Shown: one piece after another, positions 29,813-38,069 of the stretch
How positions within the stretch are numbered: the first letter of the stretch is position 1
Layout of the letters: every line of letters begins with the position of its first letter
Assembly (NCBI GenBank): GCA_038065075.1
Contig: JBBTRQ010000019.1
Location: 9,456 to 73,455, forward strand
Direction of reading: 5' to 3'
DNA: 64,000 bases
Origin: Patescibacteria group bacterium
GTDB taxonomy: Bacteria; Patescibacteriota; Patescibacteriia; UBA9934; GWF2-40-263
Translations under genes and position numbers: made by a program
Notes under the pieces: model-generated
The model's input: the letters and a program-made list of their open reading frames with translations, nothing else
What the model was told of the DNA's origin: nothing
The model's database searches: none

Positions 29813-29870
29813 AATCGCGACTATCCTACCTAAAATAGAAAAGACGCGCTAGTTGCGCGTCTGCGTGGCG

Positions 29871-30170
29871 CTAGGCGAACAGGAGGATCCCGCCGATCAT
29901 GCCGACCACGAAGCTGCAGGCGCTAACGCCGACCCAGACCGTGTGCCATGAGTGCAACCACGGCCATGGATCGGGCGCGGGCTGCAGGGCAGCGAGCGCC
30001 TGAACGGTTACGGTGTCATCGAGCTCGAGCTCGAGAACCTGTTCCTCGACGGGCGGCCGCCAAAACGGCGCCCCGACCGTGTCGTCCGGTCGCATGAGCG
30101 GCTGTGGCTTCTGCGGGACGATCACGTCGACAATCGTGGTCTCTTCTCCCCTTCGCGTCGATGCGTGCAT
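29871..30170 (-). CDS. Hypothetical small protein with a C-terminal TM segment
   Basis: GC-rich ORF at the left edge of the WD40/AAA island. Weak support. Confidence 0.2.
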   Translation of the reverse strand: MHASTRRGEETTIVDVIVPQKPQPLMRPDDTVGAPFWRPPVEEQVLELELDDTVTVQALAALQPAPDPWPWLHSWHTVWVGVSACSFVVGMIGGILLFA

Positions 30171-30262
30171 TGATCCTCCTCAAGATGAATAGCACGGCGA
30201 AAGGATACAGAACCATCGCCAACCAGTCAATCCCAGTTAAGCAACAGGTCTAATATGTTCCC

Positions 30263-30292
30263 TCAAGAAAAGAACCATCAGATGATGGTTCT
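30263..30292 (-). terminator. Intrinsic terminator of WD40 paralog 1
   Basis: AGAACCATC-agat-GATGGTTCT followed by TTTTCTTG on the minus strand. Confidence 0.5.
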
Positions 30293-30320
30293 TTGACGAA
30301 TGTTCCGGACGGCGTTTGTC

Positions 30321-31352
30321 CTACCAGATCGCCGCGGCCAGTGCCTCGGGGGTGAGGATGGTGTTGCGTCCCAAGTCCGGACAACCGAAGTCCAAGAGAC
30401 AGGGGGCATAGCAGTCGGACGATCTTGCCGGACACTGTGTGCGGTTCTTGGAAACCAGCAGTCCCTTGCCATCATCCACGGGGATGACCGCGTCGACCAC
30501 TTCCCAGAAGTCCGTAAGCGCAAGCTCCAGCTGACCATCCGGCCAGCTCATGGCGTGCAGGCAGCCGCCTCCGCGGGTGCCATCCACGACCAAGGTGTCC
30601 CACTGCCCCACGAACAGGGTGTTTCCTGTGAAGATAAGTGCGCGAATCTCTCCGCGTGAGTGAGCGGTGAGCTCCGGCCTGTGGCGTGCCGCTCCAGTCC
30701 TCACGTCCACCAGGTGGATCTGTCCGCCTTGTGTCCCACACAGAAGCTCTCCCTTAGGCGTGAAGGTGAGAGCCCAGATGCTGGAGTCCAGCCGGAGGCT
30801 ATGGAGAGTATGGAATCTGCCATCTCCCTGCCTTGAGAGGATCTTCAGGTATCCATCCCACATCCCCACCGCCAGGATGGAACCGTCTGAAGAGAATGCC
30901 AAGCGCAAGATCTGACCCTCAAACCCCTCGAGGCACCGGAAGGTATCGCTCCCGGGATATCTCAAGAAGAGCACATTCTCGTCACCCCCTGTGGCAAGGA
31001 TGCCGTCCTGGGACAGGGCGAGGTGGTTGACAGACCAACTGGAGCTCACAATCGGTTCACCTCTTTGGCACAGATACTCCACATCCCACTCACGCAGGGT
31101 GTGGTCGTGGCTGCACGAGTAGAGGGTGCGGCCATCAGACGAGAGCGCGAGGCCGGCTACACTGTCGGTATGCCCTTCAAGGACACTACAAACTTCCCCG
31201 GTCTCCACACTCCACAGATGGATACGAGGATCCGCGTTGAATCCCCCGCCCGCCAGTGTCTTCTCGTCCTGGGACAGAGCCAGGCACCAGATCCAGCTAT
31301 TGTGCCCCCTGAACAATCGCCGAGTGGTCGGCTCGGAAACGATGCGGGTCAT
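30321..31352 (-). CDS. WD40 beta-propeller protein (7 repeats), paralog 1, with a conserved Cys-containing C-terminal tail
   Basis: Repeated GH...WD units (GHTDSVAGLALSSDGRTLYSCSHDHTLREWDV etc.). Start set at MTRIVSEPTTRRLF, preceded by AAAGGAGACCACC. C-terminal tail is YAPCLLDFGCPDLGRNTILTPEALAAAIW. Confidence 0.7.
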   Translation of the reverse strand: MTRIVSEPTTRRLFRGHNSWIWCLALSQDEKTLAGGGFNADPRIHLWSVETGEVCSVLEGHTDSVAGLALSSDGRTLYSCSHDHTLREWDVEYLCQRGEPIVSSSWSVNHLALSQDGILATGGDENVLFLRYPGSDTFRCLEGFEGQILRLAFSSDGSILAVGMWDGYLKILSRQGDGRFHTLHSLRLDSSIWALTFTPKGELLCGTQGGQIHLVDVRTGAARHRPELTAHSRGEIRALIFTGNTLFVGQWDTLVVDGTRGGGCLHAMSWPDGQLELALTDFWEVVDAVIPVDDGKGLLVSKNRTQCPARSSDCYAPCLLDFGCPDLGRNTILTPEALAAAIW

Positions 31353-31478
31353 GGTGGTCTCCTTTGAATGAACGTCTTGACCATGAAAGGTCGATGGCTC
31401 GCAGGGGCGAGCGTCAACCTCTCGTGGAAAAGGCCTAACGAGTTGCGTGTCGCTAGGCATGTGGTGGTAGTGCCCGTT
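31353..31478 (-). repeat. Conserved terminator/leader module, copy 1
   Basis: On the minus strand: terminator hairpin GCCTAGCGA..TCGTTAGGCC + TTTTCC, then hairpin GCTCGCCCCTGCGAGC, then AAAGGAGACCACC-ATG. Near-identical copies at 32511-32645, 35310-35457, 36490-36590. Confidence 0.7.
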
Positions 31479-32510
31479 CTACCACCTCGCCGCGGCTCGT
31501 GCCTCGGGAGTGAGGATGGTGTGGCGTCCCAGATCCGGACAACCGAAGTCCAAGAGACAGGGGGCGTAGCGGTCGGGCGACTCGGCCGGACTTTGCGTGC
31601 GGTTCTTGGAGACCAGCAGACTCTGGCCACCATTCACGGGGATGACCGCGTTAACCCATCCCCAGAAGTCCGTAAGTGCAAGCTCCAGCGCACCATCCGG
31701 CCAGCTCACGGCGTGCAGGCGACCGCTTCCGCGGGTGCCATCAGCGACCGAGGTGTCACACTGCCCCACGAGCAGGGAGTTTCGCGTGAACGCGAGCGCG
31801 TGGATCTCTCCGCGTGTGTGAACGGTGAGCTCCGGCCTGTGGCGTGACACTCCCGTCCTCACGTCCACCAGATGGATCTGTCCGCCCTCTGTCCCACACA
31901 GAAGCTCTCCCTCCGGCGTGAAGGTGAGAGCCCAGATGATCGAGTCCAGCTGGAGGCTGTGGAGAGTCTGGAATCTGCAATCTTCCTGCCTTGAGAGGAT
32001 CTTCAGGTGTCCATCCCACATCCCCACCGCCAGGATGGAACCGTCTGAAGAGAGCGCCAAGCGCAAGATCTGACCCTCAAACCTCTCGATACACCGGAAG
32101 GTATGGCTCCCGGGGTTTCTCAAGAAGAGCGTCTTCTCATCACCCCCTGTGGCAAGAGTGCCGTCCTGGGACAGGGCGAGGTGGTTGAAAGGCTGCTTCG
32201 AGCGCAAAGTCGGTTCACCTCTTTGACGCAGATGCTCCATGTCCCACTCGCGCAGAGTGTTGTCGTGGCTGCACGAGTAGAGGGTCTTGTCATCAGGCGA
32301 GAACGCGAGGCCGGTGACACTGTCTGTGTGCCCTTCAAGGACACCACGAACTTCTCCGGTCTCCACGCTCCATAGGTGGATCCGAGGATCTGCTCCTGAA
32401 CCCCCGCCCGCCAGTGTCTTCCCGTCTTGGGACAGAGCAAGGCGCCAGATCCAGCCGAGGTGTCCATTGAACAATCGCCGAGTGGTTGGCTCGGAGATGG
32501 TACGGGTCAT
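31479..32510 (-). CDS. WD40 beta-propeller protein, paralog 2
   Basis: Same architecture and C-terminal tail as paralog 1 (MTRTISEPTTRRLFNGH...). Confidence 0.7.
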   Translation of the reverse strand: MTRTISEPTTRRLFNGHLGWIWRLALSQDGKTLAGGGSGADPRIHLWSVETGEVRGVLEGHTDSVTGLAFSPDDKTLYSCSHDNTLREWDMEHLRQRGEPTLRSKQPFNHLALSQDGTLATGGDEKTLFLRNPGSHTFRCIERFEGQILRLALSSDGSILAVGMWDGHLKILSRQEDCRFQTLHSLQLDSIIWALTFTPEGELLCGTEGGQIHLVDVRTGVSRHRPELTVHTRGEIHALAFTRNSLLVGQCDTSVADGTRGSGRLHAVSWPDGALELALTDFWGWVNAVIPVNGGQSLLVSKNRTQSPAESPDRYAPCLLDFGCPDLGRHTILTPEARAAARW

Positions 32511-32645
32511 GATGGTCTCCTTTGAATGAACGTCTTGACCATGAAAGGTCGATGACTCGCCAGGGGCGAGCGTCAACCTCTCGTGGAAAAGGCCTAGCGA
32601 GAGCGTGTCGCTAGGCGTGCGGCTTGTGAGCCACGTGGTTGGTGA
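32511..32645 (-). repeat. Conserved terminator/leader module, copy 2
   Basis: See copy 1. Confidence 0.7.
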
Positions 32646-35309
32646 CTAATTCGTCACCGATGGCTTAACCGGCGGGATGACCTGCATACGGATGTCAGAC
32701 TCCTCTCCGTGCTGCTTGAGCACCTCCAGCGCCCACTCCACCTCGTCCCGCGCGTTGGCGGGCAGAAGCGCTCTGGAGCGCGCGTTGGCTACGGCCAACA
32801 GGGTCATGCGGGCGATTTGCGTTTGCTGTGCCTGCGGCATGTAATCGCCGATGGCCCAGAGCAGATCATCACGATTCACGCCAGGCTCCCCGTGCGTGTC
32901 GGCGTGCCGGACGATCACCTCGATGTCCGCGCCGGAGAGGCGCTTGGTCTTGTCGGCGAACTCCGTGAAGTCCGTGATGTCCGTGGTGAACCCGCCGCGC
33001 CGAATCATCACGCGGAACAAGGCTTCACGGGTCGTGGCATCGGGCATGAGCACCGGGATGACTTCGTCGCTTCGACCGGCACGCAGCATGGCCGCGTCGA
33101 TGAGATCCGGTCGGTTGCTGGCCGTCATGTAGAACACGCGGCCTCGGATGGTCGGATCGGCGAGGAAGGTCATCCACGCCTGACGCGTCCGGTTGGACAC
33201 ACCCGAGTCGCCGCTGAATCCATCGCGTCCGCCGTCGTTCTGATCGATCTCGTCCTGGAATACCACGCACGGCGCCATCAACCTTACGGCCTCCAGCTGG
33301 TCGTGCACGTTGCGCTCCGATGAGCCAACCCACATCTGTTGAGTGTGGCGAGGGATCAGCAGCAAGAGACCGGAGGCGTGCGCCAACGCCGTCGCCAGCG
33401 CACTCTTGCCGGTACCGGGCGGTCCCAGCAGTGCACACCCCATGGGCACTCGCGAGAGGTCGCCCGTGCGCATGCGCTCGCAGACGTCCAGGAGAAACGT
33501 CTTGACGCCGTCGAGTCCGGCGATGCCGTCAAACCCGTAGGGTGGGTCGATCACCTCAAACAGATGCCCGAAGCGCTCGTTGAGGATGACCAGCCTGTGT
33601 GCGACCACGTCCTTGTGGGACAGCGGCTGGTTGCCGGCCTGCGCGCGACGAAGCAGACGGCGCAGATCGCGGTAGCCCATGTTGCCGGTCAGACGAGCCA
33701 GCTCGACAACCCCCATGGTGGGCGTGTCGAACAACGATTCGTCGTCACGGGTTGCCGTGAGCCGTCGATGCTGCTCGCGCAAGTCGGTTAGTGTCTCGCT
33801 GGAGAGGTTCGGAAGACGAGCCTTGCTGTCTCGCAGTGTCTGCGCCAACTGCTGCGCGATCCGTGTGTGGTCCTCTTGCAGCTCCTGCAACCGACTCACA
33901 GCCGCTGTCGTCAGCCGATCGAGCTCGCTTTGCGCCTCTCGGATCGACGCCGGCTCGCTCGAGCACAGCGCCTCCAAGTTCCGTTGCAGCTCCTCCAGAC
34001 ACTCTGTTGCCTGCTTTCGAGCAAACGGCTTCACCGTTAGGCAAGCGACGTTGTCGGCATTGGCCACGCAGATGTCGGCGTCGTTTGCCTTGAAGCGCAT
34101 CACCAGCAATCCGCCCTCAAAGAAGAATTGGGCGGGGATGCTGGAGTTACGCGAGTCGGTGACCGGCTTGTTCGGGTTCGCCCCGCTGGCGAACTGCACT
34201 CCGCTACGTCTCGTCGCGCTCTTGAGCACAGTGAAGCGCTGTGCCCCACCACGCGAGTCCTGGACACTGACCATATCGCCGGGCGCCAAATTGGCCCAGC
34301 GAGCCTCGTCAAGAGACGCGTCATCGGTCAGGAGAGGATCGCTCCGCAGCTGTGCGCCAAGGGCATCGATCTGCGCTTGGAGATTCGCCAACTGCCCGGC
34401 ATTATCCGCGTTGAGGGACTGCCGCAGAGCCGTAAGCGAGGATCGGCACCGCTTCACGGCCGCCAGATGCCCCTTGTACTCACCGTCTTGCTTGAGGGAC
34501 TTGCGTAGGGCGCTGTGCCGTTCGTCTGCCGTCCGAGCCGCAACGATGTCGTCATTCGCTCGCGCTTGCAGTACTTGGATCTCCTCGGCGATCTGCATCT
34601 CCAGCTCTTGCTGGCGCTGCAGGCCACTGTCCGTCCTACACACCCGGCGCAAGTAAGCCTCACGCTCCGCCTGAAGGGGGGGATCCACCTTGATCAAGCA
34701 GATGGGCGAGCTGCTGTCGCGCAGCATCTGGGGCAACAAGCCGGAAGATCTGGCGCTCATGAGCACCAAATGGCCGACGATCCCAAAGGCATCGTCTTCC
34801 GCCATTCGCCGGATGAGCAACGGCGTACGCGACGACATGGCGCCGGCAGGGGAACTGTCGTCCAGACAGTAGGTGTCGACATTGGGCAGAATCACCGTGA
34901 AGCGAACCGAATCGCCGACGGCGTGCCGCAGCACGTTCATGATCTGCGACAAAGCCCCGGTGGGATCCGTCGTCTGCTCGACCCTCGACGCCACCTGCGC
35001 TCGCGCGCGGGCGATGGGATCGTCAGCTTCACCGGCAGACTGCCGGTTCTTCTTAAGCAGCTCCCCGAACGCCTCATGATCTTCGTCTCTGGGGAAGCTC
35101 AAGCCCAGAGCCGGATCAAACACGACGAAACGACGATCGGGCTCCTGCCTGACCAACGCGTCGAGTACCAGCCGGTGCCAAGGCAACAGCGCCATGGATG
35201 ACGCATCGGTCGTATTGGGGAAGCCGTCTGCGACGTTCCCGTCAAACAGGAAGCAGAAATGGCACCTGGCGCGCTCCTGCTCGAAGGTTCTCATCCAAGA
35301 TGGAGTCAT
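32646..35309 (-). CDS. Large (≈887 aa) protein: N-terminal unknown region + extensive coiled coils + C-terminal classical AAA ATPase domain
   Basis: Walker A GPPGTGKS, Walker B VVFQDEID, second region of homology RPDLIDAAMLRAGRSDEVIPV. Heptad-rich Q/L/A segments lie upstream. Start set at MTPSWMRTFEQ behind GGAGAAGAG. Confidence 0.7.
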   Translation of the reverse strand: MTPSWMRTFEQERARCHFCFLFDGNVADGFPNTTDASSMALLPWHRLVLDALVRQEPDRRFVVFDPALGLSFPRDEDHEAFGELLKKNRQSAGEADDPIARARAQVASRVEQTTDPTGALSQIMNVLRHAVGDSVRFTVILPNVDTYCLDDSSPAGAMSSRTPLLIRRMAEDDAFGIVGHLVLMSARSSGLLPQMLRDSSSPICLIKVDPPLQAEREAYLRRVCRTDSGLQRQQELEMQIAEEIQVLQARANDDIVAARTADERHSALRKSLKQDGEYKGHLAAVKRCRSSLTALRQSLNADNAGQLANLQAQIDALGAQLRSDPLLTDDASLDEARWANLAPGDMVSVQDSRGGAQRFTVLKSATRRSGVQFASGANPNKPVTDSRNSSIPAQFFFEGGLLVMRFKANDADICVANADNVACLTVKPFARKQATECLEELQRNLEALCSSEPASIREAQSELDRLTTAAVSRLQELQEDHTRIAQQLAQTLRDSKARLPNLSSETLTDLREQHRRLTATRDDESLFDTPTMGVVELARLTGNMGYRDLRRLLRRAQAGNQPLSHKDVVAHRLVILNERFGHLFEVIDPPYGFDGIAGLDGVKTFLLDVCERMRTGDLSRVPMGCALLGPPGTGKSALATALAHASGLLLLIPRHTQQMWVGSSERNVHDQLEAVRLMAPCVVFQDEIDQNDGGRDGFSGDSGVSNRTRQAWMTFLADPTIRGRVFYMTASNRPDLIDAAMLRAGRSDEVIPVLMPDATTREALFRVMIRRGGFTTDITDFTEFADKTKRLSGADIEVIVRHADTHGEPGVNRDDLLWAIGDYMPQAQQTQIARMTLLAVANARSRALLPANARDEVEWALEVLKQHGEESDIRMQVIPPVKPSVTN

Positions 35310-35457
35310 GACTCTTCTCCTCGTGTGGTGTGGGTTGGAAATTGAATGAACGTCTTGACCATGAGGGGTCGATGGCTCGCAGGGGCGAGCGTCAACCTCT
35401 CGTGGAAAAGGCCTAGCGAGCAGCGTGTCGCTAGGCATGCGGTGGGTAGTGCCCGTT
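35310..35457 (-). repeat. Conserved terminator/leader module, copy 3
   Basis: See copy 1. Confidence 0.65.
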
Positions 35458-36489
35458 CTACCACACCGCCGCGGCCAGTGCCTCAGGGGTGAGGATGGTG
35501 TTGCGCCCCAGACCCGGATAGCCAAAGTCCAAGAGACAGGGGGCGTAGCGGTCGGACGATCTTGCCGGACACTCCATGCGGTTCTTGGAAACCAGCAGTC
35601 CCTTGCCACCATTCACAGGGATGATCACGTCGACCCCTCCCCAGAAGTCCGTAGGGGCAAGCTCCAGCTGACCATCCGGCCAGCTCATGGCGTGCAGGCG
35701 GCCAAGTCCGCGGGTTCCATCCGTAATCGAAGTATCCTGCTGCCCCACAAGCAGAGCGTTTCGCGTGAACGCAAGCGCGCAGATCTCTCCACGTGTGCGA
35801 ACGGTGAGCTCTGGCCTGTGGCGTGACTCTCCCGTCCTCACGTCCACCAGGTGAATCTGCCCGCCTCCTGTCCCGCATAGGAGCTCTCCATCCGGCGTGA
35901 AGGTGAGCACCCAGATGCTTGAATCCAGCCGGAAGCGGTGGAGAGTCTGGAAGCTGCCATCTTCTTGCCTTGAGAGGACTCGCAGATGGCCGTAAGCCCT
36001 CCCCACCGCCAGGGTGGAACCGTCTGCAGAGAATGCCAGGCACCGGATCCAATTCTCGAACCCCTCGATGCGCTGGACGGTTTTGCTCCCGGGACGTCTC
36101 AAGAAGACAACGCCATCGCCACCTCCTGTGGCGAGTGTGCCGTCCTGGGACAGGGCGAGGTGACTGAGAGTACCCCTCGAACTCACAATCGGTTCACCTC
36201 TTTGGCGCAGATGCTTCACATCCCACTCACGCAGGGTGTGGTCGTAGCTGCACGAGTAGAGGGTGCGGCCATCATGCGAGAACGCGAGGCCGGTGACACT
36301 GTCTGTGTGCCCTTCAAGGACACCACGAACTTCCCCGGTCTCCACGCTCCATAGGTGGATACGAGGATCAAATCCTGAACCCCCGCCTGCCAGTGTCTTC
36401 CCGTCTGGGGACAGAGCAAGGCACCAGATCCAGCTGTTGTGTCCCCTGAACAATCGCCGAGTGGTTGGCTCGGAAACGGTACGGGTCAT
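35458..36489 (-). CDS. WD40 beta-propeller protein, paralog 3
   Basis: MTRTVSEPTTRRLFRGHNSWIWCLALSPDGKTLAGGG... with the same C-terminal tail. Confidence 0.7.
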   Translation of the reverse strand: MTRTVSEPTTRRLFRGHNSWIWCLALSPDGKTLAGGGSGFDPRIHLWSVETGEVRGVLEGHTDSVTGLAFSHDGRTLYSCSYDHTLREWDVKHLRQRGEPIVSSRGTLSHLALSQDGTLATGGGDGVVFLRRPGSKTVQRIEGFENWIRCLAFSADGSTLAVGRAYGHLRVLSRQEDGSFQTLHRFRLDSSIWVLTFTPDGELLCGTGGGQIHLVDVRTGESRHRPELTVRTRGEICALAFTRNALLVGQQDTSITDGTRGLGRLHAMSWPDGQLELAPTDFWGGVDVIIPVNGGKGLLVSKNRMECPARSSDRYAPCLLDFGYPGLGRNTILTPEALAAAVW

Positions 36490-36590
36490 GGTGGTCTCCT
36501 TTGAATGAACGTCTTGACCATGAAAGGTCAACGGCTCACCAGGGGCGAGCGTCGACCTCTCGTGGAAAAGGCCTAGCGAGTTGCGTGTCG
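36490..36590 (-). repeat. Conserved terminator/leader module, copy 4
   Basis: See copy 1. Confidence 0.65.
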
Positions 36591-37193
36591 CTAGGCATGC
36601 GAACCAAGACCCAACAGTCGTAGAACACTGGCGATTCGTCCGTGATCCGTCACGCCGTGCGAGACCACTTGACCGCCATCGATCTCCAGCGCGATGACGC
36701 TGTCCAAATCCTCTGAACGGTATCGCCCTGTCAACAGATGCACTCTCTGGTTACTACTTCCTCGCAGGGGAAGGTTGTCCACGGCCAAGAGTTGCACGAA
36801 CCGACCGTCGATAAGCACGTCCAGTTCTCGCAGAAGTTCGCGCGCCCCATCCGGCGCATGGGCACCGCGCAAGAACTTCCGTGTGTAGCCTGACCAGCAC
36901 AGCACGGACAGACCCTGCTCCTTGGCCGCGTGCGCGATCTGCGCAAGCGCCCGAGCTTGCTCAAAGGGCTCGCCTCCGGAGAAGCTCACGCCTTCGATCC
37001 CGAATCGTTCTTGCGCTTGCGCGATGCATGTGATCAACGCGTCGACAGCGACGAGGTTCCCTCCATCGCCCCAGAGCTCCGGCGTGGTGCAACCATGGCA
37101 GCCGATGGTGCAGCCCTTGACCCAAAGACACAGGCGCTGACCCGGACCCATGGCAGGCGTGCACTCGACCACGCGCCCGACGCGCAGGATCAT
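36591..37193 (-). CDS. Small radical-SAM / 4Fe-4S single-cluster protein of the NrdG / QueE activase type
   Basis: 'GPGQRLCLWVKGCTIGCHGCTTPELW' gives C-x3-C-x2-C in the NrdG/QueE-like context. About 200 aa. Confidence 0.55.
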   Translation of the reverse strand: MILRVGRVVECTPAMGPGQRLCLWVKGCTIGCHGCTTPELWGDGGNLVAVDALITCIAQAQERFGIEGVSFSGGEPFEQARALAQIAHAAKEQGLSVLCWSGYTRKFLRGAHAPDGARELLRELDVLIDGRFVQLLAVDNLPLRGSSNQRVHLLTGRYRSEDLDSVIALEIDGGQVVSHGVTDHGRIASVLRLLGLGSHA

Positions 37194-37402
37194 CCTCCAC
37201 CTCTGACCTTCCCACCGGATGGGACGGGAATGGGCGGAGCGCTTGCGTCGGGCACGTTCATCTCGTCAACACGTCCGCCCAACAACGCCAGGATGGCGCG
37301 CAGGCGTCGAGCCTCCTCCTGGCAGACGCCCGGAAGCGCTTCGACTTGGATGTCCACCGTGCCGTCGCCCTTCACGACGACGATGATCTCTCTGGCGCTC
37401 AT
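37190..37402 (-). CDS. Small protein (70 aa), translationally coupled to the radical-SAM gene
   Basis: 4-nt overlaps on both sides. Ends in a Pro/Gly-rich tail (PPIPVPSGGKVRGGG). Confidence 0.3.
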   Translation of the reverse strand: MSAREIIVVVKGDGTVDIQVEALPGVCQEEARRLRAILALLGGRVDEMNVPDASAPPIPVPSGGKVRGGG

Positions 37403-37965
37403 ACGTCCACCTTTCGGCCGACGATGACCAGGGCGCCGTCGGCTCCGCGCGTTTCCACGATGTCATCGACACAGAGAATCTGCATGGCCGCACGCATCTG
37501 CTGCTCATGAAAGTGACGCCGCAGACAGTCCTTCCACTGTGCAAGCTCGGCAGGGTGGCACTGCTGCGTTCCCGTGTTCCAGAACTGAAAGAAGGTGCCG
37601 TCCTCTCGGATCCCAACCCCCAACTGGAGGAATGTCCCGTTATTGAGCACGCCAAGAACTTCGCCTTGGTCCGGATCGCCGCTCTTGGAGCCGTAGGTGC
37701 TGGCGTTGTCGTAGCTCTTGGCGCATGTGCAACCCATCTCTTGCGCGGCTGCCGCAAGCGCTTGGCGCATGGCGTGGGCACGCACCTCCTGCCAATTGAT
37801 GGCGGCCAGATCCGCATCCTGCGCGCCGATCTGACCTAGTGCGCCCGTGACGGATCCGGCATCGGCGATCTCTCCGATGTGGAGCTTGTGATAGTGCAGA
37901 GACACCTGTCCTCCTGTGGGGAAGGTTATTCCATGGACAAAAGAGACGATTTTTCCCTTTGCCAA
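37399..37965 (-). CDS. Hypothetical protein (188 aa), first gene of the radical-SAM operon
   Basis: No recognisable motif. Overlapping stops and starts indicate an operon. Confidence 0.35.
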   Translation of the reverse strand: MAKGKIVSFVHGITFPTGGQVSLHYHKLHIGEIADAGSVTGALGQIGAQDADLAAINWQEVRAHAMRQALAAAAQEMGCTCAKSYDNASTYGSKSGDPDQGEVLGVLNNGTFLQLGVGIREDGTFFQFWNTGTQQCHPAELAQWKDCLRRHFHEQQMRAAMQILCVDDIVETRGADGALVIVGRKVDV

Positions 37966-38069
37966 GGAGAAACGTTTTTATATCAAAAACGCGAATGTGT
38001 CAATGAAAAATCCCGGACATCTAATCCGAGATATTCTGCTAGAAAGGTCTCTACAATATGATCACCTAC

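Follow-up and report, generated by a model that had tools for sequence, protein, structure and literature searches.

Tandem WD40 paralogs of a Patescibacteria gene cluster end in a predicted propeller closure and a lineage-specific hydrophobic peptide

Three WD40 paralogs and the end of their propeller

The whole stretch of 64,000 nucleotides analyzed here (the window; Patescibacteria group bacterium, contig JBBTRQ010000019.1) contains four genes between positions 30321 and 36489, three of which encode WD40 paralogs and one an AAA ATPase. The WD40 and AAA genes, the further genes of the cluster, their segments, the intergenic cassettes, and the 99-aa ORF described below all lie on the minus strand of the window. 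The subject of this study is the C-terminal stretch shared by the three WD40 proteins, which an earlier note on this DNA had described as a conserved, cysteine-containing tail with a possible docking function. The first paralog, WD-A (30321-31352, tag AAB413_03155), was characterized by its open reading frame (ORF), alignment, Pfam, an exact database match, AlphaFold, and Foldseek. WD-B (31479-32510, tag AAB413_03160; 79% identical to WD-A) and WD-C (35458-36489, tag AAB413_03180; 77% identical to WD-A) were delimited by ORF, alignment, and database match. All three proteins comprise 343 amino acids and, according to the alignment, start with MTR, preceded in each case by an AAGGAG Shine-Dalgarno site. 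The longer ORFs listed for the WD40 and AAA genes are artefacts caused by read-through of a repeated upstream cassette. The database entries for the 343-aa forms are hypothetical proteins of a Patescibacteria metagenome-assembled genome.

WD40 repeats were recognized in all three proteins (Pfam PF00400, E = 8e-28 for WD-A to 2e-30). The Pfam CDC20/Fizzy WD40 model also scored, but under its cut-off. No signal peptide was found at the N-termini of the WD40 proteins of the cluster. The AlphaFold model of WD-A has a mean predicted local distance difference test score (pLDDT) of 89.5, and that of the orthologue P0004 one of 87.6. Foldseek aligned the WD-A model to the seven-bladed WD40 proteins WDR5, G-beta, and TLE1 (template modeling scores 0.72-0.76). 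DSSP assigned 28 strands to the model, corresponding to seven blades of four strands in a d-a-b-c register, which points to a closed seven-bladed propeller. The N-terminal strand 9-13 is predicted to be the closure strand, contributing strand d of blade 7.

A common C-terminal stretch is indeed present in all three WD40 proteins. It covers 42 residues and not about 45 as reported before, and the consensus pattern given for it misses substitutions in two of the three proteins. In WD-A, the stretch reads KNRTQCPARSSDCYAPCLLDFGCPDLGRNTILTPEALAAAIW. The stretch of WD-B, KNRTQSPAESPDRY, deviates from the quoted pattern with QS and PAESPD, and that of WD-C, which reads KNRMEC at its start, with KNRM. 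The terminal peptides are AAAIW, AAARW, and AAAVW in WD-A, WD-B, and WD-C, respectively. The number of cysteine residues in the tail is four in WD-A and two each in WD-B and WD-C, whereas 4, 2, and 3 had been counted. The tail motif occurs on no other ORF of the window. Invariant positions among the three paralogs make up 74% of the tail versus 69% of the whole protein. The ratio of nonsynonymous to synonymous substitution rates (dN/dS) is 0.25-0.39 in the 42-residue tail versus approximately 0.5 overall, which is in the range of other well-kept segments; for the last 21 residues, it is 0.20-0.42. The tail is therefore translated and constrained, yet it is no outlier among the window paralogs.

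The tail had been placed after the seventh blade, with YAPCLLDFG as its core. In the AlphaFold model of WD-A, DSSP assigns the strands of blade 7 to residues 289-292, 297-300, and 318-321. Residues C318-D321 (CLLD; pLDDT of the block 82) were assigned to strand c of this blade because the count of 28 strands is reached only with CLLD as strand c and strand 9-13 as strand d. According to DSSP strands and strand count, residues 302-322 of WD-A (30387-30449) would still belong to the propeller: KNRT ends strand b and opens the b-c loop, and YAPCLLDF holds strand c. Residues 301-317 (KNRT..SSDCYAP) would form an enlarged b-c loop of blade 7. The corresponding loop and strand c are located at 31545-31607 in WD-B and at 35524-35586 in WD-C. 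The model of P0004, an orthologue with 46% identity, concurs (YLLTPKN as strand b, YAPALHD as strand c; block pLDDT 78), and P0157, the most distant of the close relatives, carries the canonical WD signature CIWDF at the same place. A profile search against the PDB gave alignments confined to blades 1-3 and was uninformative on the C-terminus.

Beyond the predicted propeller, only the approximately 21 residues G323-W343 are left, and their pLDDT falls from 53 to 33. The last approximately 20 residues are of low confidence in both AlphaFold models (WD-A and P0004). As delimited by pLDDT, family motif, and dN/dS, the post-propeller tail of WD-A (residues 323-343, 30324-30386) comprises the rest of a DFGxPxLGR turn (to R329), a linker (residues 330-338), and AAAIW. 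Its counterparts, ending in AAARW and AAAVW, are found at 31482-31544 (WD-B) and 35461-35523 (WD-C). YAPCLLDFG would thus not be a post-propeller core but an ordinary blade closure, an outcome that the earlier note itself had named as speaking against its tail. On these models, the first half of the reported tail is most readily described as closure of the propeller, followed by a family-signature turn. A flexible linker and a selected, lineage-specific hydrophobic C-terminal peptide (see below) make up the final approximately 14 residues.

A different part of the propeller displayed elevated dN/dS. At residues 121-165 in blades 3-4 (30858-30992 in WD-A and the equivalent positions of the paralogs), the ratio reached approximately 1.0-1.4, compared with 0.2-0.5 in the rest of the protein. 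One sector of the propeller may be under relaxed or diversifying selection in the window paralogs, which would fit diversifying receptor surfaces.

Terminal peptides of cluster-linked WD40 proteins in other genomes

A profile of the C-terminal 88 residues was compared with 1.8 billion proteins and retrieved a handful of relatives. All of them are WD40 proteins with the same tail, so that the occurrence on non-WD40 proteins raised in the earlier note was not borne out by this search. Four paralogs adjacent to locus L013 with ..FLAVRK-like ends were considered as non-WD40 carriers and rejected; since the motif is found inside a duplicated domain as well, it does not represent a tail. Close relatives are very rare and comprise P0004, P0005, and L008 from one organism, several Hainich groundwater contigs, and P0157. 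They are likewise arranged as tandem arrays. Among species-representative genomes, no relative was found by searches with the AAA N-domain or the WD40 C-terminus, and a metagenome scan added one short contig. On the 1386-bp contig L001, the ends 1-46 and 1341-1386 repeat each other with one base different, which indicates that P0004-type WD40 genes are also arranged in a tandem array that was collapsed by the assembler.

In total, 21 tails of WD40 proteins linked to the same type of gene cluster were compared. At the same place, 20 of the 21 carry the sequence hydrophobic-x-[ILV]-[LFYMW]-[DN]-F. Most extend [DN]-F as x-x-x-[NDQ]-[LFI]-G-[RKNST], followed by 8-14 variable residues and a genome-specific end. 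The glycine of this motif is nearly invariant (19/21), lies in a flexible region, and is located 11-16 residues from the C-terminus. Judged from these alignments, the DFGxPxLGR-type turn appears to be a signature of the WD40 proteins linked to the cluster. None of the comparisons of 5, 8, and 21 sequences revealed an invariant cysteine in the tail. The previous argument that variable cysteines speak against a metal site holds, since no cysteine is conserved outside this genome.

The ends differ between lineages. The P0004 group ends in PPWAAM, and the Hainich contigs in PDWLIT and PPWLRF. Five paralogs at L014 share the end LD[E/A/D]xFV, five paralogs at L015 and L011 (one assembly) share I.[E/D]LPV, and two paralogs at L016 end in A[I/L]xI. 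The terminal tryptophan of the window proteins is not a general feature as had been supposed; in most close relatives, the tryptophan is located four residues from the end, and the distant relatives end in V or I. In homologues of the tail, the [DN]-F core is kept across genomes, and the end is kept among the paralogs of one genome.

Within a genome, the end is kept on strongly divergent proteins. The bodies of the L014 and L015 paralogs are only 20-30% identical, yet four to six of their last six residues are the same. The last five residues are shared to 67% in pairs from the same genome (n = 19) versus 14% in pairs from different genomes (n = 156) at approximately 25% body identity. The terminal codons differ synonymously among paralogs, which indicates that selection acts on the peptide at the protein level, and the motif persists next to unrelated downstream DNA. 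Gene conversion via the repeated intergenic cassettes was considered as an explanation and ruled out by both the synonymous codon differences and the differing downstream DNA. The DFG motif is missing from one L014 paralog that retains LDDRFV, so that the two motifs are independent of each other.

The conserved gene cluster and its surroundings

The WD40 genes belong to a gene cluster that encodes a 160-199-aa protein, a 69-72-aa protein, an NrdG-like radical SAM protein of approximately 200 aa, an AAA protein of 705-904 aa, and WD40 proteins. The number of WD40 genes per cluster ranges from zero to six or more, and they are placed before or after the AAA gene. The same gene order was found around radical SAM homologues (approximately 50% identical) in loci L009-L016 and around the radical SAM homologue of L004, which belong to several Patescibacteria assemblies, and the order in the window is identical. 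In L011, the AAA protein is split into two genes (306 aa and 577 aa). Wherever contigs are long enough, tail-bearing WD40 genes were seen solely beside radical SAM and AAA genes. The link to the AAA gene assumed in the earlier note was therefore confirmed, as radical SAM, WD40, and AAA genes occur together in several lineages. In L004, the C-terminal part of a radical SAM protein (40% identical to the one encoded at 36591-37193 of the window) is encoded ahead of the WD40 gene, and a homologue of the window AAA N-domain (34% identity, E = 5e-20) behind it. An inserted Fic-domain gene (L004, 1326-2402), oriented on the opposite strand, separates the WD40 gene from this homologue. In L009, five genes follow the AAA gene (11474-15938; 509, 161, 94, 500, and 142 aa), none of which has a Pfam match. 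The 94-aa product ends in QGG and recalls a ubiquitin-like protein.

In the window, the AAA gene (32646-35309; Pfam AAA, E = 4e-22) encodes 887 amino acids. The protein has an N-terminal domain, a middle region that is coiled-coil and beta-rich, and an AAA module of the classical clade. Its start is MTPSW, and the gene has a GGAG Shine-Dalgarno site. The AAA motifs are intact, with Walker A GPPGTGKS at 629, Walker B at 681, an aromatic pore loop MWVG at approximately 659, and arginine fingers (RAGR at 743). The matches to the CDC48, PAN, and FtsH families are all under the family cut-offs. Over 874 aa, the protein is 36% identical to the AAA protein of L014 (E = 5e-159).

The WD40 and AAA genes are preceded by three genes joined by 4-nt overlaps (36591-37965). 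The first gene of the cluster encodes a 188-aa protein (37399-37965). It is followed by a gene for a 70-aa protein ending in GGG (37190-37402), which shares 4 nt with the gene on either side, and by the gene of the 200-aa NrdG-like radical SAM protein (36591-37193; Pfam Fer4_12, E = 2e-31); the latter two are core genes of the cluster. The best match of the radical SAM protein is NCBIfam NrdG, with 91 bits at a cut-off of 126. The 188-aa and 70-aa proteins have no Pfam or PDB match. The family of the 70-aa protein displays one invariant cysteine and an invariant LLG. A ubiquitin- or Pup-like nature of this protein was considered and rejected, since L015 and L016 lack the GG end and L014 has a lysine after it.

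Four copies of an intergenic cassette of approximately 105-130 nt are located upstream of WD-A (31353-31463), WD-B (32511-32622), the unrelated AAA gene (35310-35441), and WD-C (36490-36598). The copies were identified by alignment and by a 32-nt core that is exact in three of the four (31403-31434 in the first) and has one mismatch in the fourth. The layout, as seen in the first copy, is a 9-bp hairpin, UUUU, a second long hairpin, the AAGGAG ribosome-binding site, and ATG. RNA folding of the second copy gave -56.7 kcal/mol (z = -6.5). In the fourth copy, the radical SAM gene ends within the cassette, its stop codon lying in the first hairpin arm. The cassette has no Rfam family match. Analogous repeated hairpin cassettes occur after the WD40 genes of L014 and L015.

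No description of the cluster was found in the literature and family libraries searched. The PADLOC matches were limited to a generic similarity of the AAA domain (IetA, TRIP13) and a weak radical SAM/viperin match, which gives no basis for an assignment to a known defence system. The Pfam scan of the window and the related loci revealed no peptidase encoded in the cluster, and Pfam-type scans detected no tetratricopeptide repeat (TPR) family in the cluster proteins. No PDZ domain was present in the window cluster proteins scanned, and no 20S proteasome genes were seen.

The G+C content of the window is 0.60-0.63 at 30001-38000 versus 0.53-0.57 on both sides. This section is located between lepA/recJ and a gene of the metallo-beta-lactamase fold, and it could be a horizontally acquired island. 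Directly downstream of WD-A, an ORF of 99 aa (29871-30170) is preceded by a GAGGAGG ribosome-binding site. Its product has a hydrophobic C-terminal segment and no family match, and the ORF is followed by a terminator-like hairpin (29842-29862).

The terminal peptide as a candidate docking element

The occurrence of a genome-specific end on divergent paralogs is the pattern expected of varied subunits that plug into one shared partner. We tentatively favor, with somewhat less than even confidence, the reading that the terminal peptide is a docking or recognition element by which the divergent WD40 proteins plug into a common partner, most likely the AAA protein of the cluster. In this view, residues 302-329 go with the propeller, in which the models place KNRT..YAP in the b-c loop of blade 7 and let CLLD close the ring together with the N-terminal strand 9-13. 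Residues 330-343 comprise the flexible linker and AAA[I/R/V]W-COOH, and this terminal peptide would be a lineage-specific recognition element. The tandem WD40 paralogs may act as interchangeable, diversifying receptor subunits, each of them tethered by the common C-terminal peptide to the same partner. The likeliest candidate for this partner is the co-encoded AAA unfoldase of approximately 880 aa of the conserved Patescibacteria cluster, which we infer from guilt by association. That the peptide docks at all is likewise inferred, and the proposal of the earlier note that the tail is a docking peptide stands in modified form: it suits the extreme C-terminus, whose last five to six residues are kept in divergent paralogs, and not the YAPCLLDFG core.

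Several observations weigh against this reading. The blade-7 assignment rests on two predicted models, and the strand pairings were derived from the DSSP strand count. A hidden Markov model of repeats 1-6, derived from five family members, matched the C-terminal 72 residues with insignificant fragments only (DGKGLLV on strand b). It missed the degenerate seventh repeat, whose position can therefore not be read from the sequence alone. Taken by itself, conservation within the window is uninformative, because the three paralogs are 77-79% identical over the whole protein and 34% of all 42-residue windows are conserved as well as the tail or better. The evidence for a docking-type peptide therefore comes from the other genomes and not from this window. 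The clusters L009 and L013 contain no WD40 gene at all. Finally, the Uhrbacteria-type assembly GCA_026395055.1 harbors two cluster copies (L011 and L015). The AAA proteins of these copies share just 35% identity and are as far apart as pairs from different genomes. Despite this distance, all five linked WD40 proteins end in [ED]LPV, which shows that the terminal motif tracks the genome and not a particular AAA protein. Hence, either the receptor could be a factor common to the whole genome, or the same pocket would have to be kept by the two AAA proteins.

The first of these two options was weighed as a separate explanation, in which a PDZ-type protease or chaperone, or a localization or export factor outside the cluster, reads the peptide and the AAA protein is not the receptor. 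Apart from the motif shared across the two clusters of one genome, it is favored by the ends themselves, most of which fit the hydrophobic-x-hydrophobic-COOH pattern typical of PDZ class II ligands (AIW, AFV, LPV, IYI, LLI, AAM, and LRF do, LIT does not). However, no such partner was identified, the WD40 proteins are without a signal peptide, and those with this tail were seen solely in the neighborhood of radical SAM and AAA genes wherever contigs are long enough; we regard this explanation as distinctly unlikely. The next best reading after docking, although also an unlikely one, is that the WD40 proteins are substrates whose disordered C-terminus (approximately 20 residues with a non-polar end) serves as a degron or engagement tail. 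A housekeeping protease or the pore of the AAA protein would grip it in order to unfold the propeller or turn it over. In favor of this, the tail has the disorder and the length that engagement by a pore calls for, the C-termini are hydrophobic in all lineages, the AAA protein has the aromatic pore loop MWVG, and LAAA in the window tails resembles ssrA. On the other hand, LAA is not terminal in the window proteins, the cluster encodes no peptidase, arrays of strongly diversified paralogs suit receptors better than substrates, and the strictly kept acidic residues (LDEAFV, [ED]LPV) suggest recognition by a specific pocket.

The stretch might also be nothing more than a blade closure with a short leftover that looks conserved owing to recent tandem duplication, as the similarity of the window paralogs, the inconspicuous conservation of the tail among them, the predicted blade-7 strand c within YAPCLLDFG, and the identical codons of the alanine run (GCC GCG GCG) and of the tryptophan (TGG) in all three window genes would have it. 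For the terminal peptide, this is contradicted by the 20-30%-identical paralogs elsewhere, which keep the last five to six residues with synonymous codon changes, and by the low dN/dS of the 21 post-propeller residues, and we consider it very improbable. An intramolecular clasp or autoinhibition, with the tail resting on its own propeller as a top-face pseudo-ligand or as a lock of blades 7 and 1, would account for the family-wide DFGxPxLGR turn directly after the closure strand; the earlier note had itself mentioned folding back as an alternative. Neither model places the last approximately 20 residues confidently anywhere, though, and the paralog bodies are too divergent to keep a genome-specific pocket each, which makes this option more improbable still. 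Least probable of all is a role as substrate of the NrdG-like radical SAM protein, in which the near-invariant glycine of N-L-G-R (G328) would become a glycyl radical or receive another modification. A radical SAM gene that resembles glycyl-radical activases, with its NrdG score under the cut-off, is a core gene of the cluster, the window contains no NrdD or other glycyl-radical enzyme, and the glycine is flexible and close to the C-terminus in nearly all tails. However, the tail motif [NDQ]-[LFI]-G-[RK] does not match RVxG[FYW], the glycyl-radical fingerprint located approximately 25 residues from the C-terminus, which occurs in no long ORF of the window and in none of the cluster tails. Moreover, clusters without WD40 genes retain the radical SAM gene, the genes of the 70-aa and 180-aa proteins with their 4-nt overlaps encode likelier partners, and the absence of nrdD refers to the window, so that nrdD may be present elsewhere in the genome.

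Returning to the docking reading, it may be speculated that an undescribed machine, widespread in Patescibacteria, is made up of the WD40 proteins, the AAA protein, the radical SAM protein, and the two small proteins. Radical SAM chemistry on the 70-aa protein or on the tail glycine would be coupled to protein remodeling by the AAA protein, and the rapidly diversifying WD40 proteins, anchored through their genome-specific C-terminal peptides, would be plug-in receptors that serve immunity or host interaction. In this complete form, the proposal is quite unlikely. Patescibacteria genomes are tiny, yet several lineages keep up to six or more WD40 paralogs beside one large AAA and a radical SAM gene. 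A genome-specific C-terminal peptide on divergent propellers offers an experimental handle, as deleting or swapping five to six residues should break or re-wire the system; altering it would identify the receptor and, via the propellers, the targets. The analysis also corrects the reading of such tails, half of this one being a predicted closing strand of the propeller.

The closest layout among known systems is that of Cdc20 and Cdh1, in which the WD40 domain (residues 168-471 and 172-473, respectively) is followed by an IR tail (492-499 and 483-496; PMC5717348). As in the WD40 proteins described here, a flexible tail follows a seven-bladed propeller; in Cdc20/Cdh1, the propeller is the substrate receptor and the tail of approximately 10-20 residues docks in a pocket of the core machine (PMC5717348). 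The ends are different, namely I-W, R-W, and V-W in the window and F-V, P-V, Y-I, and L-I elsewhere instead of Ile-Arg, and the motif of the cluster WD40 proteins varies between genomes. Neither an Apc3-like TPR receptor nor a C-box was found, and the candidate partner is an AAA ATPase and not an E3 ligase.

The bacterial adaptor SspB ends in a flexible linker and a short, conserved XB peptide, which tethers it to the N-domain of the AAA+ unfoldase ClpX. The same layout is seen in the low-pLDDT linker and the terminal five to six residues kept among 20-30%-identical paralogs. SspB is encoded by a single gene and has no propeller, whereas the cluster contains arrays of two to six diversified WD40 genes with a putative tether to the AAA protein and lacks a ClpP-type peptidase. 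In proteasomal ATPases and activators, a hydrophobic C-terminal tripeptide, HbYX, inserts into pockets of the partner ring. The window proteins (AIW, ARW, AVW) have no penultimate tyrosine, only one remote paralog ends in IYI, and the direction is reversed, as the peptide is carried by the non-ATPase. The ssrA degron, LAA-COOH, is added by tmRNA and read by ClpX or ClpA. Its disordered, alanine-rich, non-polar end resembles the window tails with their LAAA. In contrast to ssrA, LAAA is followed by I-W or V-W, WD-B has RAAARW, other lineages end quite differently, and the peptide of the cluster WD40 proteins is genome-encoded on a paralog family. In SCF complexes, many divergent WD40 receptors share a small conserved anchor, the N-terminal F-box of approximately 40 residues. 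By analogy, the cluster WD40 proteins may use a common small anchor to a shared core in the same manner, with the differences that the anchor would be a C-terminal peptide of five to six residues, the system bacterial, and the core an AAA protein.

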